NCBI GenBank assembly: GCA_016937215.1
Contig: JAFGWI010000033.1
Span: forward strand, 16,266 to 80,265
Reading direction: 5' to 3'
Length of the DNA: 64,000 bases
DNA from: Spirochaetales bacterium
Lineage (GTDB): Bacteria; Spirochaetota; Spirochaetia; SZUA-6; JAFGRV01
Under the pieces are notes generated by a model, which was not told the origin of the DNA, did no database searches, and saw only the letters and a program-made list of their open reading frames with translations. Numbering within the stretch: the first letter of the stretch is position 1; the number at the start of each line of letters is the position of its first letter. This document shows, piece after piece, positions 38 to 55,717 of this stretch. The position numbers and the translations under genes were made by a program.

Positions 38-334
38 TGTACTAGTTTAACTAAATGGGGGCCTTTGTTTTAAACACGCATTAGGGATAGAAGGCATGAC
101 TGGCTTGCTATTTTTTAAGAAATAGCAAGCCAAAGCGTTTTCTGCCGAATAATTTCCGATAGAAAACCTTCATAGTAACAGCGAAGTTAGGATTCAGACT
201 TATAGTGAATGCCAATGAGCATCCACCCCATCGAGCAATAAATGCGGAGCATTTATGACCAGAGGCTGGATAAACCGGCCTGCCATGCCTCTGGGTAGCA
301 AGTAAGGCCTGGAGTATTCTGCTTAACAAATACA
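38..334 (-). repeat. Structured repeat family A (Flavo-1-like), copy R1, with flanking inverted repeats
   Basis: Minus-strand core 77-310 ends TTCTATCCCTAATGCG and has hairpins GTTTTCTATCGGA-AATTA-TTCGGCAGAAAAC and TGGCTTGCTATTT..AAATAGCAAGCCA. Flanks are TGTACTAGTTTAAC (38-51) and GCTTAACAAATACA (321-334). Confidence 0.75.
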
Positions 335-343
335 ATAATTTAC

Positions 344-575: not shown

Positions 576-1907
576 TTAATCAACCACAGAATCATAGGCT
601 TCCGTAAAATCACAGACCCATTGGTACAATTCTTTAGAATTACGTCGCTCGATTACCAATTCATCTTTGGGTTTTTTAGCAAACTTCTCTTTCAAACTCT
701 TAAAAACCAAGGATAATATTGTGGGAATTGTCATAAAAATAATTTTCAGATCGAAAAACGGACTCATGCGACGTCCATAGGTAATATCCAATCGTATCAT
801 CTGTTTAAAAGTCAAATCATTTTTCCCACTAACTTGCCACAATCCGGTTAAACCAGGCACATAGTCAAAACGCCCCTGATGCCAGCGCAAATACTCCTTT
901 GCTTCATATGGTATACATGGCCGCGGCCCTACCAGGCTCATATGACCAAAAAATATGTTCAAAAGTTGTGGTAATTCATCAATACATGTTTTTCTTAATA
1001 TATTTCCACCAGGAATAATTCGTTTATCATTTTTATCATCCAGTTTCGTAATCTTGCTACCAGAAGCAATGACATTCTTCATCAAGTTCATATGTTCGTT
1101 TTCATCATTATTAACCTTCATGGTACGGAATTTATATAAGGTGAATATTTTACCCTTATGACCGACTCTCTTCTGAGTGAAAAAAACAGGACCGGGTGAC
1201 ACAATTTTTATATAAATCCCCACAAGCAATAGAAGAGGCAAACTGATTAAAATACTAAAACCCGACACCACAATATCCATAGTTCTTTTCCATAAAGGCA
1301 TTTTTTTAGAGATAATCGACTTAAATTGGTCGGAACTTTGTAGAATATTATTTCCATAGTCAATTGATGAGGCATTTTTATCATTCAATAGAGTACCGAG
1401 GTTCATAACAGTAAGGTTTTCATCAGGCTTTCCCCTTTTACTATCTTTCTGATCATCAAAATCCGATTTCTGAATCCAATGATCAGGATAAATGAAGACA
1501 GTAAAGGGAGGAGGCGCTTGAGAAACAAATATTTCCGCGCTGACGTCAACAGCAAGATGCCAAGCTCCTCTTAATGAAGAACCATGCAGGATGACACCGA
1601 TTATATTTTTATCAAACCATCCGATTATATCCACTTTTCGAATACGATCATATAAATGATGTATGAATTTTTTCAAAATCTTTTTATGCTTAATGTTTTG
1701 CAATTCAAACAAAACCAAAGCAAATTGAGATTCATTTCTATCAGAACGAGCACGCTCTATTTTAAGATTGTAGTGGAAATGCGCAGTATCGAGTATCCCA
1801 ATATTGTTCTGGCTAATCTGGGATATTAACTTGATTCTTTCTTTAATACTTGGCATATTCATCCCCTTTAATAAATAATCTAATTTTTTATTCAAAATAT
1901 CAGTCAT
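576..1907 (-). CDS. Priming sugar transferase (Bac_transf, WcaJ/WbaP-like C-terminus) with an N-terminal degenerate GGDEF-like domain
   Basis: C-terminal motifs KRTMDI, KFRTM, DELPQLLN, MSLVGPRP and PGLTGLWQV. N-terminus has ERARSDR...RKVDIIGWFDKN. Confidence 0.9.
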   Translation of the reverse strand: MTDILNKKLDYLLKGMNMPSIKERIKLISQISQNNIGILDTAHFHYNLKIERARSDRNESQFALVLFELQNIKHKKILKKFIHHLYDRIRKVDIIGWFDKNIIGVILHGSSLRGAWHLAVDVSAEIFVSQAPPPFTVFIYPDHWIQKSDFDDQKDSKRGKPDENLTVMNLGTLLNDKNASSIDYGNNILQSSDQFKSIISKKMPLWKRTMDIVVSGFSILISLPLLLLVGIYIKIVSPGPVFFTQKRVGHKGKIFTLYKFRTMKVNNDENEHMNLMKNVIASGSKITKLDDKNDKRIIPGGNILRKTCIDELPQLLNIFFGHMSLVGPRPCIPYEAKEYLRWHQGRFDYVPGLTGLWQVSGKNDLTFKQMIRLDITYGRRMSPFFDLKIIFMTIPTILSLVFKSLKEKFAKKPKDELVIERRNSKELYQWVCDFTEAYDSVVD

Positions 1908-2016
1908 TTTTATTTTTTATAAATCTGAATCCATTTTAAGAATTTTATATAGAGAATAGTACCACTTCAAAATAGAAATAACCATAATACGAAAGTATGA
2001 TTTTGCTGTTATCCAT

Positions 2017-2281
2017 ATGTATTTGTTTAGCAATGGCTTATTTGGGCGTTTCCCCATTCCGCTTTTTTATGAGCGGTTTATCATTTGAGTACAAAGGAAC
2101 AAACCCTGCCTGGCTTCATGGGGTCGGGCTTTTCGCTTCAACTCCTCGCAGAACCTGTATCCGCTGCTGTAATTGTCCAAAGAAATGGCAAATGATTAAA
2201 ATACAACGGTCTGCTGCGGGGTTTTCGCTGCAATCCCTAACGCGGTAAAAGCTGAAAAATGAATTAGCTAAACAAATACAT
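2017..2281 (+). repeat. Structured repeat family A, copy R2, with a perfect 15 bp terminal inverted repeat
   Basis: Core 2044-2244 reads GGGCGTTTCCCC...GGGGTCGGGCTTTTCGCT...GCAATCCCTAACGCG. Flanks are ATGTATTTGTTTAGC (2017-2031) and GCTAAACAAATACAT (2267-2281). Confidence 0.85.
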
Positions 2282-2707
2282 CCATATTATCATTGTCTTG
2301 ATTTTACGTAATATCATAGTTTAATCATGCAAAATCATTAGATCGAAAGCCCTTATACAAATATTATAGCCAACCTTAATGAATAAAAAAACAAAGCCTT
2401 TTTCTTTATCTTTTGGAAAAGTAAAAATATAGCTTCCTTTAAAATAAATGTCTAAAACCTCAAAGAAATTGAACTAATCCCATAAAACAAAGAAACATCT
2501 CGCATTCAGCAATGAATTAAGGTAATATTAATATTATTTAGACTTAAAGAATTGTGATTTTAGTACAAAAAGCAGAATAATTGCAGCTCGTTAAAAAAAA
2601 TATATAGGGTGCCTCAGCCCCACAAAATGCGAATTATGTGTTGATGTGAATAATAGAAAACACTCATTTCTGAATTTATAGTTTTATAATAAATAGACAA
2701 TCAGATT

Positions 2708-3406
2708 TCAAAGGTATTTAACTGCCCACAGGGCTGCTTGAAGACGATTTTTGACCTTGATTTTTTTATAAATGTTATACAAATGTGTTTTAACAGTATT
2801 AGGTGTAATAAACATTTTGTCGGCTATTTCCTCATTATTCACACCAAGTGAAATCATTTGCAAAATTTCAATTTCCCGTTCAGTAAGATTGGTTTGCTTT
2901 TGAATATAGAATATTTTTTGCTTAAAGCCGTTAAAGGCACATTTTAATAAAATATCTCTAGCAACCCAAAATTCCCCCTTTATCACTGTTTGGACACCAC
3001 GTAGAAACAAATTTAACTTATCGTCGGTATAAAAAAACCCCTTAATTTTTTTTCCTAAAGCTTTGTGCTCCAAACCTGATCCGATATGTAAATTAAACAA
3101 TGCCAAAATAAATGAATCATCATCTGGAGTATTTGTTGAGATAAATTTAATGACATATTCAAAACTGGCATCTCTATTATTGATTAAAAAGAGCTTTTTT
3201 TTATAGTTTTTAACTAAATCATAGTTTAAATTGCCAATATCCTGTAATAAATCACATTGACAATTAAATTCCTTTGAAACCACATATTGAATCAATTCAT
3301 TTTTTAGATTTGGCGAGCCTAAGACAAATGATATTAGCTCCTTTTGCCCCATGCCCTCTTTGGTATTCAAAATCGACTTGGAATTACCGAGCTTAAAATC
3401 TGACAA
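2708..3406 (-). CDS. LuxR-family regulator, CsgD/VpsT-like (atypical receiver plus LuxR HTH)
   Basis: C-terminal LTEREIEIL...NEEIADKMFITPNTVKTHLYNIYKKI...NRLQA. GEFWVAR lies at the position of the VpsT W-x-x-R motif. Start codon uncertain. Confidence 0.88.
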   Translation of the reverse strand: MSDFKLGNSKSILNTKEGMGQKELISFVLGSPNLKNELIQYVVSKEFNCQCDLLQDIGNLNYDLVKNYKKKLFLINNRDASFEYVIKFISTNTPDDDSFILALFNLHIGSGLEHKALGKKIKGFFYTDDKLNLFLRGVQTVIKGEFWVARDILLKCAFNGFKQKIFYIQKQTNLTEREIEILQMISLGVNNEEIADKMFITPNTVKTHLYNIYKKIKVKNRLQAALWAVKYL

Positions 3407-3464
3407 AAAATACCCCTTTTTCGTTCAATATAAAATCATTATCGTAAAAAAATGTTGAAAATAT

Positions 3465-3571
3465 TAGAGCTAATTGCAATAGTCCTGACATAGTCATTAG
3501 CGGGCAATTGCAAATGGATAACTTGTCCGCAATCTTCATGATTCTTGCCAAACCTCAGCATTGCAAGAGCC
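3465..3571. repeat. Repeat family B copy
   Basis: AGAGCTAATTGCAATAGTCCTGACA ... CTTGCCAAAC-CTCA-GCATTGCAAGAGCC. Confidence 0.65.
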
Positions 3572-3640
3572 TTATTAATAAATAAGAATTAATTATAGGC
3601 AAACAAAATTAGTTTAGCAAGAAAAATAATGCTTCAGAAC

Positions 3641-3763
3641 AAAGCTAATCGCAAAAGTCCTGACATTAACAAATAGCCTCAAAGATATAACTATTTATCC
3701 AGTAAAAAAATAATTTATCCGAAATCCTTAAAACTTTTACAAAACCTCAGTTTTGTAAAAGCC
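3641..3763. repeat. Repeat family B copy
   Basis: AAAGCTAATCGCAAAAGTCCTGACA ... CTTTTACAAAAC-CTCA-GTTTTGTAAAAGCC, a perfect 12 bp stem. Confidence 0.65.
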
Positions 3764-3957
3764 TCTTAACTCTAAATAATATAACAAATTCCCTAAATTC
3801 ACTGCAAAATATGGGCAAGATTGTTTAAAAACAATATAAATTATATCAATCTATGGTTCTAATACCCCCCACAAAAAAGCACAATTAACTTAGCTTTAAA
3901 TCTCAGATTACTTATTAATTCAAAAAGCAATCTTAATTTTATTCCATCATTCAATTA

Positions 3958-5448
3958 TCAATCAGTAGAATTTCCAAACAAATTAACAAAAGCAATTACA
4001 GTTGTAATCATGGCTAAAATAGAAGTTATGACAGGCGCATATTCACCAAAACTGAAAGAAAAAGAATTTTTCAATACGATAATAGTATCACCTGCTTCAA
4101 TCACATCTTCAGGGCTTTTATTTTTTCCATCCTTACCTCGCACTACAAATTGAAAATTAGTATTCAATTCTGTATCAATTCCTCCTGCTTGAATAATATA
4201 ATACATGGCCGTTTTTCCCCGGACATAGGAAAACACACCTTCAGAATAAACAGCGCCAATAACATTAACCCTAAATTCAATTTCAGGAATGACAATTATG
4301 TCAAATGGGTGTAACAACCGGTCTTTTTCACTGCTATATTGAAACAATAAAGAAGCACAATCAACATAATGGAGCTCTGTTGAATTTTCCTCGATTATGT
4401 AAACCGATTTCAGATCTGCATAGGTGGATATTCTAGAAATATTATTCTGAAGCACATCATATAAAGTAATACCAGGATTAAATGAATAGGATATCCTATT
4501 TACTTGATTTTGAAGAGTATTTAATTCATCAATTTCATCTGTTTGCTGAGAAGAAATGGCTCCTTCAATATATACAACCTTTTGAATACGCGAAACAGAA
4601 AAAAGCTCAATAATATCACCATTTTTTGGAATATAATTTGCGAAATCGGATTTGTTTTCACTATCCAAATAAGTAATATTATAATCATCCAGAGTATTAT
4701 GAGTAATTTTGATACGCTTCAAATTAGCATCTTCAGTAAAACCTCTTCCATAATAATTAATTACTTTAATCAAAGAATCATCAGATAAAATTTGATATTC
4801 ACCTGGCCTGTGAACCTGCCCCACTAATCGAATATTTTTTACACTCTTATCAACATGTATGATATCACCTGGTTTCAACAAAGGATCTTGATCCAAATCC
4901 CCTTCAAATATTGATTTGTACAAATCAAATTGCTCGATCTCACCAGAGGAGTGATGAATCTGAATGTTTCTTATTGAGGAATAGGATTGAAGCAGTCCAC
5001 TAATTGCTTGGCTCAATCGGGTTAACCCCCACACTGTAATACGTTGAGACATATCAAGCTCACCTACAATAAAAACCTGAAAAATTCCTACCGACTCAAT
5101 GGATACAAAAGGAATGCTACCCGGATAAGCATCAATAACTTTAGCTTCAATTTCTTTCTTTAATTCAGGAAAACTTTTATTATAGCCGTTAATATGGCCA
5201 AAAACATTCAATTCAACATTATAGTCGCTTTCCACAACAATCTCGTAAGTAGCTAATGTTCCAGCAGATAAATAAGATAATTGATAAACATCACCTGGTG
5301 TTACTGGGTATTCAATGGTTGATATGGCTAATTGTAGCCGGTCATGCTCCAATGCATACCTGTCATTACCAAGGAAAACAGGCAATTCTTGGGAAAAAAC
5401 CGTAAAAAGCAAATTTATAAAAAACAATAAAAAAATGAATTTCTTCAT
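3958..5448 (-). CDS. Polysaccharide export protein (Wza/KpsD-like, SLBB repeats)
   Basis: Signal peptide, YPVTPGD, and repeated SLBB motifs (VGQVHRPGEY, VIGAVYSEG, AGG...GDTIIV). Adjacent to a Wzz-like gene. Confidence 0.85.
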   Translation of the reverse strand: MKKFIFLLFFINLLFTVFSQELPVFLGNDRYALEHDRLQLAISTIEYPVTPGDVYQLSYLSAGTLATYEIVVESDYNVELNVFGHINGYNKSFPELKKEIEAKVIDAYPGSIPFVSIESVGIFQVFIVGELDMSQRITVWGLTRLSQAISGLLQSYSSIRNIQIHHSSGEIEQFDLYKSIFEGDLDQDPLLKPGDIIHVDKSVKNIRLVGQVHRPGEYQILSDDSLIKVINYYGRGFTEDANLKRIKITHNTLDDYNITYLDSENKSDFANYIPKNGDIIELFSVSRIQKVVYIEGAISSQQTDEIDELNTLQNQVNRISYSFNPGITLYDVLQNNISRISTYADLKSVYIIEENSTELHYVDCASLLFQYSSEKDRLLHPFDIIVIPEIEFRVNVIGAVYSEGVFSYVRGKTAMYYIIQAGGIDTELNTNFQFVVRGKDGKNKSPEDVIEAGDTIIVLKNSFSFSFGEYAPVITSILAMITTVIAFVNLFGNSTD

Positions 5449-19517: not shown

Positions 19518-19897
19518 TGTATTTGTTTAGCAGAAATTTTCAGGGCATTGCCTGATATATCCAGGGGCTTTCAGGCCAGGCTTTACTCGACTTTGTTTTG
19601 CTCCCAAAGCCCCAGGCCGCAAAGCTTGTTGCGTAACCTCGAGATACGAAACTATTGTGCTATACCTGGAGGGCCCATGCGTATATACCCCCCTATATAG
19701 TGTCACAATAGTTAACCTATCGGTCGCGTAACCATTTTGGCATGGGCAAGCAATCAATATCAAGCGTTTATGACCAGCAGCGCCTGCCGGCTTAAACAGA
19801 TTTAGGATTTCAGAAAGCCATTTTCAAAAAAATGGCTTTCTGCCGCTCCAATCCCCAAGGCTTGTCCTTGCAATTGAGCATATAGCTAAACAAGTAC
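19518..19897 (+). repeat. Structured repeat family A, copy R4, enlarged by an internal insert and flanked by inverted repeats
   Basis: TGTATTTGTTTAGC (19518-19531), GGGCATTGCCTG...CAGGCCAGGCTTT, CAGAAAGCCATTTT/AAAATGGCTTTCTG, GCTCCAATCCCCAAGG, and GCTAAACAAGTAC (19885-19897). Confidence 0.75.
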
Positions 19898-30777: not shown

Positions 30778-30949
30778 GTATTTATTCAGCTTTTTTGGGC
30801 GTTACCCTATTCCGCTCCGCTCCAAAGGGCCCGGGCTTTGCGCTGCTCCGCTGTCGCTCCGAAATCCTCGCCTGCCAAATAGGCAGGCTGCGGGTTTCAT
30901 AAAAGCTTTTTTGAAAAAAAGCTTTTATGCCGCTCCAATCCCTAACGCG
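30778..30949 (+). repeat. Structured repeat family A, copy R5
   Basis: GTATTTATTCAGC, then GGGCGTTACCCT...CCGGGCTTTGCG...CATAAAAGCTTTT/AAAAGCTTTTATG...CCAATCCCTAACGCG. Confidence 0.85.
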
Positions 30950-33745: not shown

Positions 33746-33900
33746 TCATTCTGAACGCGGCGAAGCGAAGAATCTCAGTTGACGATGAGCATGTTGATTC
33801 TCCAGTTGATTCTCTAATAGAGTGGTTGCGAGTAGGAAGGAAGCAATGCAGGATGAGAATCTTGTAGATTCTTCGTCGTACCTCCTCAGAATGACATCGG
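33746..33900. repeat. REP-doublet-like element (family C)
   Basis: TCATTCTGA..GAAGAATCT is inverted against AGATTCTTC..TCAGAATGA. The right arm is identical over 37 bp to 55358-55394. Confidence 0.75.
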
Positions 33901-34023
33901 TAACCATTTTTTAGTCCTGCTAGATGTTAAATATAAATCCAAAAAAAATGGGGGCAAAAAATCATGTGTAAATGCTTCAGATTTTACACCCCAGGGCAAC
34001 GCCCAAAACTGGGATCATTAATC

Positions 34024-38594: not shown

Positions 38595-38668
<74 letters not shown>

Positions 38669-45948: not shown

Positions 45949-46149
45949 TAACTTGTTCAGTTAAATCGATTTCCCGCTCTTAGCGCGTTAGGGATTGGAG
46001 CCATGTTCAGTCATTTTTTTAAAAATGACTGAACAAAGCGTTTTTGGGCGGATAATTTCCGCCCGAAAACCTTCAAAGTGGCGCAAAGCCCGGCCTGCTG
46101 AAATGTAATGAAAGCAGGCAACGCCCGAAAAATCAGACCAAACAAATAG
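45949..46149 (-). repeat. Structured repeat family A, copy R7, with degenerate inverted-repeat flanks
   Basis: Core 45984-46126 (minus: GGGCGTTGCCTGC...GCAGGCCGGGCTTTGCG...CCAATCCCTAACGCG). Flanks are TAACTTGTTCAGT and ACCAAACAAATAG. Confidence 0.85.
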
Positions 46150-51567: not shown

Positions 51568-51722
51568 GGGCGTTCCCCTGTTCCGCTCCTCTTCACAGGG
51601 TCGGGCTATGCGTTACTCCGGCTTTGCCTCCGAAGGTTTTGGCACGGAAATTATCCGCGCCAAAACGCTTTACCTGGCAGGTTTTGAAAAACCTGCCAGG
51701 TATAACTCCTATCCCTAACGCG
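51568..51722 (+). repeat. Structured repeat family A, copy R8
   Basis: GGGCGTTCCCCTG...CAGGGTCGGGCTATGCG...GTTTTGGCACGGA-AATTA-TCCGCGCCAAAAC...TACCTGGCAGGTTTT/AAAACCTGCCAGGTA...CTATCCCTAACGCG. Confidence 0.88.
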
Positions 51723-55357: not shown

Positions 55358-55394
55358 GTAGATTCTTCGTCGTACCTCCTCAGAATGACATCGG
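55358..55394. repeat. Family C REP arm
   Basis: GTAGATTCTTCGTCGTACCTCCTCAGAATGACATCGG, identical to 33864-33900. Confidence 0.85.
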
Positions 55395-55532
55395 AAAACA
55401 TTTTTTACATCTACTGAATAGTTAAAATTCCTTTAAGTGAGCAGCGGGTATTTGAAATGATTGTAACCAGGGTGATACACATTCTATTGGAAAAATGGCA
55501 TTTCATTAGCCTAAAACAGGCTTCGGATTTTA

Positions 55533-55684
55533 CGCGTTAGGGATTGGAACGACAGAAAGCCCTTTTTTCAAAAAGGGCTTTCTGAAAAACCTGGGCACGA
55601 CAATTCCGTGCCCAGGTTTTTCACAGCGGAGCGGAGTCGTGTAAAGCCCGGACCTGCTGGAATGGAATGAAAGCAGGTAACGCC
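55533..55684 (-). repeat. Structured repeat family A, copy R9
   Basis: Minus: GGCGTTACCTGC...GCAGGTCCGGGCTTT...AAAACCTGGGCACG/CGTGCCCAGGTTTT...CAGAAAGCCCTTTT/AAAAGGGCTTTCTG...CCAATCCCTAACGCG. Confidence 0.88.
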
Positions 55685-55717
55685 AATACTAGAACTCAAC
55701 AATAAAAAATCCGCAAA

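Follow-up and report, generated by a model that had tools for sequence, protein, structure and literature searches.

The window analysed here is the whole stretch of 64,000 nucleotides at positions 16266-80265 of one contig (C225) of a Spirochaetales bacterium, the assembly of which (G000) comprises 5,088,767 bases in 335 contigs, has a G+C content of 41% and is 87.66% complete. Between a sugar-transferase gene (576-1907, minus strand) and a gene for a LuxR-type response regulator (2708-3406, minus strand), this window harbours R2, a structured core bracketed by an inverted repeat. A first-pass annotation of this DNA had described R2 and similar units elsewhere in the window (R1, R4, R5 and R7) as a mobile unit of inverted repeat plus structured core, had suggested a composite MITE (miniature inverted-repeat transposable element) and had left the family of the related insertion sequence (IS) unassigned. 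In the present analysis, the inverted repeat turned out to be the 13-bp terminal inverted repeat (TIR) of a MITE family, the copies of which measure about 160-440 bp, carry a separable structured core and have ends of the type found in IS66 elements with a single open reading frame (ORF; ISBst12-like). The probability of this interpretation is estimated at roughly 0.85. The exact edges of the TIR, an 8-bp target-site duplication, two paralogous empty sites and the linkage of TIR and core all support the mobile unit as it was originally proposed.

The sequence ATGTATTTGTTTAGC occurs at window positions 2017-2031, and its exact reverse complement at 2267-2281. Both arms of the 15-bp inverted repeat, which had been reported as perfect, are indeed exact, but the conserved repeat comprises only 13 bp (2019-2031 and 2267-2279), and the outer 'AT' belongs to a duplication. 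The 15 bp are therefore composed of the 13-bp TIR, GTATTTGTTTAGC, and the ends of the 8-bp duplication ATCCATAT which flanks R2. With up to three mismatches, the 15-mer showed 10 matches in the window (3.70 expected; 1 of 100 shuffles reached 10), which is a weak test if taken alone. Genome-wide, the 13-mer was found in 216 exact copies and in 380 copies with at most one mismatch. By our own estimate, uniform chance would yield about 0.15 exact copies, and the reversed pattern, which served as control, yielded none. When the 380 TIR-anchored stretches were compared all against all, the aligned pairs numbered about 350-400 immediately before the TIR and 12,548 at the first TIR base, and the sequence outside the TIR is only A/T-rich. 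These stretches form 81 clusters, the largest of which have 79, 50, 36 and 32 members. The same edge was seen in public read data containing the R2 locus (two DNA runs of one study, and no RNA run), in which contigs derived from other copies of the element become loose ends or diverge at window position 2018/2019.

Only 17 convergent TIR pairs with at most one mismatch were detected in the assembly, because 254 of the 380 TIR copies are located at contig ends (250 of 670), where the element runs off the end. The assembler breaks inside young, near-identical copies. If two mismatches per TIR and a distance of 120-900 bp are permitted, 53 convergent pairs are obtained. Of these, 51 span 162-439 bp, with interiors consisting of hairpin modules. 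As is characteristic of a MITE, the TIRs lie at the exact edges of the repeated unit, a target-site duplication of fixed length (8 bp) is present, and the unit is small, non-coding and multicopy, as judged from its span, its hairpin-module interior and the 380 TIR copies.

The 53 pairs were used for the analysis of duplications, with mismatched pairings of left and right TIRs as null. The flanking 8-mers were identical (8/8) in 7 pairs and matched in at least seven positions in 22 pairs (null 1.45%; binomial P for the excess about 1e-26). Duplication lengths of 3-7 and 9-12 bp gave no signal in these 53 pairs, so that 8 bp is the sole register with a signal. A and T make up 85% of the duplicated 8-mers, and 20 of 22 have A in the second position.

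Two elements are inserted in other repeats, and therefore paralogous empty sites were on hand. If the element C29:27132-27458 and one duplicate are removed, the sequence becomes collinear with further copies of an unrelated repeat, of which about 37 span the junction; each of the four that were aligned contains TAATTTTT once. The second element, C287:31395-31600 (GAAGTATT on both sides, 8/8), splits a hairpin module, which is intact in both paralogues that aligned (n=2). Both empty sites end exactly at the TIRs and contain the 8-bp target once; their boundaries thus coincide with the inverted repeat plus one copy of the duplication.

The TIR is closely linked to the core. Of 379 TIR copies, 329 lie at a fixed distance from a core end, which bears out the expected enrichment of the inverted repeat around cores genome-wide, and 50 adjoin neither core end. 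The 5' end of the core (GGGCGTT.CC) is located 13 nt from the TIR in 119 of 168 cases (9-14 nt in 164 of 168), and the 3' end (reverse complement GCGTTAGGGAT) is located 23 nt from the TIR in 154 of 161 cases. Spacings of 6-12 nt on the 5' side and 22-26 nt on the 3' side had been reported, together with a lack of conservation of the spacers. The lengths proved to be tighter than that and are conserved, whereas the sequences of the spacers are conserved within subfamilies only and vary between them.

Nevertheless, the core is a separable unit, because the same TIR wraps other cargo in another spirochaete (G125; relatives are referred to by the labels G021, G067, G125, G371 and G006) and because 293 complete cores possess neither TIR nor duplication. 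Two elements were found in G125, which belongs to another spirochaete family: one of 174 bp has exact TIRs and a duplication matching 7/8 (ATAATTTT/TTAATTTT), the other, of 92 bp, has an exact right TIR and a left TIR with one mismatch, and the interiors of both are unlike the core described here. The term 'composite' is reasonable in view of this unrelated cargo and of the predominance of TIR-less cores in the genome under study. The core 3' motif ATCCCTAACGC was detected genome-wide in 666 copies with at most one mismatch, 403 of them exact, and in at most one copy in each of 40 relatives (four of the same family, and G021 of the same order), which were used for comparison together with 400 further genomes of the phylum. 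The exact 13-mer is present in more than five copies in no genome but this one, as was seen across the 400 further genomes.

A TIR (up to four mismatches) is absent from the expected place in 336 of 474 full-context cores, and the similarity of these to other cores stops at the core edge. The median length of the 403 complete cores is 154 nt. For the 293 complete TIR-less cores, no flanking duplication was detected at any offset tried (largest excess 2.8%, compared with 18-23% in the TIR-bearing positive control), and none had a paralogous empty site (0/293). According to a crude ORF map, 270 of them are intergenic. Where they occur between tandem genes, 100 are antisense and 59 sense, which is a modest bias in orientation. 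The core unit of about 150 nt consists of conserved single-stranded motifs and three hairpins, which differ in sequence and are yet complementary. In the fold predicted from 142 aligned TIR-less cores, 91% of 43 pairs are of Watson-Crick type, in contrast to 26-43% if the partners are slid, with a mean of 2.5 Watson-Crick pair types per pair; G:T and A:C account for 1.8% and 0.8%, respectively. With wobble pairs nearly absent on either strand, pairing at the DNA level or a process that corrects hairpins is a better fit than a typical RNA, although the question is not decided by this.

The number of TIR matches runs smoothly from 13 down to 8, and better-preserved TIRs accompany closer relatives: the 75th percentile of best identity drops from 93.5% at 12-13 TIR matches to 87.6% in cores without a TIR. 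The gradient is consistent with a series of increasing age, the TIR-less cores being old MITEs of which only the cores were maintained. Alternatively, these cores may be of independent origin.

Additional observations concern the build of the cores. Optional modules, among them GAGCAATAAATGCGGAGCATTTATGACCAG and repeated GTGAATGCCAATGAGCATTCAC hairpins, recur in variable number, as for example at window positions 108-176, 233-264 and 19748-19779 and also genome-wide, which makes the elements modular in the manner of BOX. In some cores (C252:73197-73570, C113:11685 and C141:6464), the loop of the first hairpin harbours a second small element, the ends of which resemble CAATTCCAAATATAAAC...GTTTATATTTGGAATTG; it looks like another MITE family targeting these elements.

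A candidate source of the mobilising enzyme was found in other genomes. Among the 40 relatives, the exact 13-mer occurs three times in G021 and is absent from the four genomes of the same family. One of the G021 copies (locus L013, 3565-3577) is located 255 nt upstream of two ORFs which match PF03050 (IS66 transposase); they cover profile positions 10-128 and 226-283 and are remnants of a transposase gene. Metagenomic relatives of the L013 protein (87-94% identical) carry the exact left 13-mer in L023, L025 and L027 and a copy with one mismatch in L022, and an exact right TIR was detected at the far end of L026, where it overlaps the stop codon of the transposase. In the five aligned left ends (G021 and four metagenome contigs; four exact, one with one mismatch) homology starts exactly with the G of GTA; the flanking sequences are unrelated. 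In this IS, the start of the ORF is about 120-255 nt inward of the left TIR, and the stop codon is located within the right TIR. Its single transposase ORF contains zf-IS66 and DDE_Tnp_IS66 domains, and no space is left for tnpA or tnpB. The ORFs match PF03050, but the fragments score 106.9 and 139.8 bits on NF033517, which is below the cut-off of 180. A relative in G067 (25% identical) scores 283.6 bits against the same cut-off; it is encoded by the only ORF (469 aa; PF03050 153 bits, zf-IS66) of a 1507-bp IS, the 33-bp TIRs of which are 91% complementary, start with GTAACACTTTAGC (GTAAC) and are identical to the MITE TIR in 9 of 13 positions. The IS right end is shared by some of the MITEs at their ends, with 86-89% identity over 28-35 nt.

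Judged from these sequence comparisons, the family which could not be assigned before is IS66, of the single-ORF, ISBst12-like kind; the duplication of 8 bp, ends of the form GTA...T.AGC and a layout with one ORF all speak for this group. It had been proposed to look for pairs of the inverted repeat flanking a transposase ORF. The exact 13-mer does end an IS66-family IS in G021 and in metagenome contigs, but not in the assembly under study, and the copies are degraded or partial.

Several other candidates were discarded. The IS66 fragment of G125 has no TIR within 2.2 kb. The ORF beside the 13-mer of L014 belongs to no Pfam family, and the 13-mer matches in G021:C49 and G006:C326 are not element ends because the stretch is conserved on both sides. 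Five exact 13-mers in G371 occur in tandem 15-nt repeats inside ORFs and are unrelated. In this small-genome spirochaete, the coding repeats at L031-L033 (ACTAAACAAACAC...) lie in an ORF recurring on several small contigs, and the match looks coincidental. In the assembly under study, searches for the IS66, IS1595, IS256, DDE_Tnp_1, ISL3, Y1 and TnpB families yielded no gene bounded by the TIR. IS1595 (PF12762) and TnpB (PF07282) had no match at all, IS256 is represented by a relic with two stops, and neither the ISL3 genes (C175 and C142) nor the DDE_Tnp_1 gene (C235) has a TIR with fewer than three mismatches beside it; on C142, one match with two mismatches lies about 370 nt from an ISL3 fragment, at the contig end. 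The ORFs beside unclustered TIR copies look like ordinary host genes, as judged from reading their translations.

A number of observations weigh against the proposed interpretation. All recovered copies of the IS with the exact 13-mer are degraded or partial, and therefore none of them can be called autonomous; the sole full-length ORF is that of the G067 relative. The second IS copy in G021 lacks the 13-mer. The two ends of a partner IS were in no case found on the same contig, so that its own 8-bp duplication could not be observed, and the MITE TIR starts with GTAT and not with the GTAA usual for IS66. A transposase of this lineage was not found in the 87.66%-complete assembly by tblastn (nothing better than E=0.1), and its sole IS66 sequence, a C-terminal fragment (C119:12-287), is of another lineage (E=0.005 in BLASTP, over 34 residues) and has no TIR within 1.6 kb. 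The absence of the transposase is weak evidence because the assembly is incomplete to this extent and breaks at repeats. None of 26 TIR pairs at a distance of 900-4000 bp showed a duplication above 6/8, and 31 of the 53 pairs match in no more than six of eight positions; we read the latter as probably older copies. Finally, no contig in the two public DNA runs joins across R2, and hence no empty allele was seen.

The element ends, the duplication, the precise insertion at the paralogous empty sites, the copy number and the presence elsewhere of an IS66-family IS with identical ends are shown by the data. An element consists of TIR, a spacer of about 13 nt, the structured core, a spacer of 23 nt and TIR, and it was inserted into AT-rich intergenic DNA with duplication of 8 bp of the target. 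In the proposed mechanism, an IS66-family DDE transposase supplied in trans would bind to the TIRs, cleave the element at its GTA/TAC ends and open the target with a cut staggered by 8 bp. For the movement of the copies by an IS66-type transposase in this lineage, for the catalytic steps of transposition and for the way in which the core came to lie between the TIRs, the account is one that we infer.

The positions of the elements in the window are listed in Table 1. The inverted repeat described around R4 was confirmed, and the degenerate repeat at R7, which is weak, and the left-only repeat at R5 also agree with the earlier description. The repeat around R1 is well preserved on the right and less so on the left.

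Table 1. Elements of the MITE family and related cores in the window (window numbering).
Feature	Position	Strand	Remarks
R2, left target-site duplication ATCCATAT	2011-2018		8/8 identical to 2280-2287
R2, left TIR GTATTTGTTTAGC	2019-2031	+	exact; homology among genomic copies starts at its first base
R2, left spacer	2032-2043		12 nt, between left TIR and core
R2, structured core, GGGCGTTTCC to ATCCCTAACGC	2044-2243	+	Flavo-1-like unit with extra hairpin modules; core end motifs
R2, right spacer	2244-2266		23 nt, between core and right TIR
R2, right TIR (GCTAAACAAATAC on + strand)	2267-2279	-	exact
R2, right target-site duplication ATCCATAT	2280-2287		flanking 8-mers match 8/8
R1 (295 bp)	39-333		core reversed; left TIR (39-51) 3 mismatches, right TIR (321-333) 1 mismatch
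R1, flanking 8-mers AATAAATT / AATAATTT	31-38 / 334-341		7/8 match
R4 (379 bp)	19519-19897		left TIR (19519-19531) exact, right TIR (19885-19897) 1 mismatch
R4, flanking 8-mers AAACAGCT / TGACAGAT			5/8 match
R5	30778-30948	+	left TIR (30778-30790) 2 mismatches; core 30797-30948; right TIR missing at 23 nt, where it was expected
R7, old copy	45949-46149		core reversed; left TIR (45949-45961) 5 of 13 mismatches, right TIR (46137-46149) 3 mismatches; 23-nt spacing kept
R7, flanking 8-mers			4/8 match
TIR-less core (154 nt), GGGCGTTCCC to ATCCCTAACGC	51568-51721	+	of the class of 293 complete TIR-less cores
Reversed core with one decayed TIR GCATTTCATTAGC	55498-55685	-	core 55534-55685; TIR (3 mismatches) exactly 23 nt beyond the 3' end

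Beside these elements, the region 576-5448 of the window resembles an exopolysaccharide gene cluster, with a sugar transferase (PF02397), a LuxR/VpsT-like regulator and an SLBB-domain protein. A tRNA gene (38595-38668, minus strand; 63.2 bits) is the sole Rfam match in the window above its gathering threshold. Furthermore, a 71-nt direct repeat (83% identical; GTAGATTCTTCGTCGTACCTCCTCAGAATGACATCGG) is present at 33864-33934 and 55358-55428. It is regarded as a further dispersed repeat family because it resembles the host repeat of the MITE at C29:27132 (GTCACTCTGAGC...GTCA.TC.GAG).

It is unlikely that the elements are REP/REPIN-like units, the folded single strands of which were acted on and spread by an HUH tyrosine transposase (RAYT or IS200-like), with the inverted repeat as the outermost stem. 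The genome does encode two Y1_Tnp proteins, the cores are highly structured (91% Watson-Crick over 43 pairs), and the TIR-less cores lack a duplication. However, both Y1_Tnp (IS200/RAYT-like) genes (C114:3850-4571 and C180:2866-3900) are flanked by the repeat GGGACAGACC and not by cores, and the inverted repeat ends a gene for a DDE transposase of the IS66 family elsewhere. Moreover, the units bounded by the inverted repeat adjoin an 8-bp duplication, and HUH single-strand transposition is not known to leave a target duplication. The combination expected of REP or REPIN sequences with a RAYT, namely no duplication and a cognate Y1 gene flanked by the repeats, is not displayed by the TIR-bounded units, and this explanation is tenable for the TIR-less cores only. 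The repeat GGGACAGACC itself occurs in 80 copies genome-wide, which suggests a separate REP/RAYT-like system.

A function of the inverted repeat as a regulatory palindrome or as the basal stem of a functional non-coding RNA gene family, and not as a transposon end, is very improbable. It could be argued that the R2 core matches the Flavo-1 RNA motif (Rfam RF01705; Weinberg et al. 2010, PMC2864571) below the threshold, that a 13-bp stem would be formed by the two arms when R2 folds, and that the TIR-less cores are oriented with a bias between tandem genes (100 antisense, 59 sense). On the other hand, the fold of the R2 single strand is unexceptional if its composition is considered (z = -1.68; an equally good fold was reached by 9 of 200 shuffles), duplications and empty sites indicate insertion, and near-identical copies are numerous enough to break 250 of 670 contig ends. 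Most cores also lack the inverted repeat, which is therefore not needed for whatever the core does.

Equally hard to sustain is the view that the core is the mobile unit and was inserted into the centre of a pre-existing palindromic target, with the inverted repeat as host DNA: the many cores without the repeat (336 of 474) and the variation of spacer sequences between subfamilies would suit it, but the paralogous empty sites hold neither inverted repeat nor core, the duplication lies outside the repeat, the spacers have fixed lengths (23 nt and about 13 nt), an IS66-family IS terminates in the same 13-mer, which also bounds unrelated cargo in G125, and the absence of exact copies of it from the four genomes of the same family implies that it is not a resident host site.

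The MITE with IS66-type ends has several consequences. A DDE transposon with such ends accounts for the dispersal of a repeat which would otherwise appear as an orphan resembling a non-coding RNA, and an RNA gene family is not needed. It also accounts for the fragmentation of this metagenome-assembled genome, since more than a third of the contig ends (250 of 670) lie inside these elements. The IS66/ISBst12 lineage gains a large MITE family, and one TIR sequence mobilises different cargo in different spirochaete families. For Flavo-1-type motifs, the question arises whether such matches generally carry flanking TIRs and 8-bp duplications.

In the comparison with Flavo-1 (E up to 1), R2 gave an end-to-end match (2118-2251, minus strand) with 32.5 bits, compared with a gathering score of 42. 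The genome contains 23 sub-threshold matches, the best with 35.7 bits, and none of 41 genomes reaches 42. As in Flavo-1, two strands of the GATTG.AGCG.AAA type pair around an internal variable region, and the R2-type subfamily aligns end to end. The differences are that a single subfamily matches and that the insert has 75 nt here and 23 nt in the model. The core may work like a Flavo-1-type fold, but with sub-threshold matches it cannot be filed as a member of Flavo-1. In Flavobacterium psychrophilum, matches to Flavo-1 are located sense or antisense to transcripts and often outside of them (PMC9723704), a pattern which would fit a DNA repeat. About 300 TIR-less cores keep the motifs and the Watson-Crick hairpins while their sequences differ, which would imply selection or correction of hairpins at each locus. 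It is conceivable, though doubtful at present, that the folded core is not inert cargo, that the IS66-type MITE serves to disperse a functional module of structured DNA (or RNA), and that, in Bacteroidota and spirochaetes, orphan 'sRNA' motifs of the Flavo-1 class are relics of such cargo and not RNA genes.

With regard to known transposons, the closest comparison is with ISDge4 of Deinococcus geothermalis, a single-ORF member of the ISBst12 group of the IS66 family. It has TIRs GTAACTGCTCAGCA/GTGACTACTCAGCA, which begin with GTAAC/GTGAC, and an 8-bp direct repeat (PMC12898284). IS66 elements have 8-bp repeats and usually start with GTAAGCG (PMC11946415). The MITEs described here share the 8-bp duplication with ISDge4, and the pattern GTA....T.AGC is common to the MITE TIR (GTATTTGTTTAGC), the IS of G067 (GTAACACTTTAGC) and ISDge4 (GTAACTGCTCAGCA). 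The partner IS likewise has a single transposase ORF. In contrast to an IS66 element, the elements in the window encode nothing, and the fourth base of their TIR is T and not A. An IS66-family source for a MITE is not described in the literature searched, a non-exhaustive set available in part, which included PMC3189936 and PMC9769881 and did not extend to ISfinder.

With REP, BIME and REPIN sequences the family has in common that the repeats are abundant, intergenic and hairpin-forming; it differs by its TIR-bounded units with 8-bp duplications and ends of the DDE type. Bacterial MITEs with structured interiors are represented by Correia/NEMIS, RUP, BOX and ERIC, which are small, non-coding, TIR-bounded and intergenic elements of high copy number with modular, hairpin-rich interiors and are mobilised in trans. 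The MITEs of this spirochaete resemble them in size, TIRs, copy number, intergenic location and hairpin interior, and differ in that their interior is present about 300 times also without TIRs, with hairpins that differ from copy to copy and are yet complementary.

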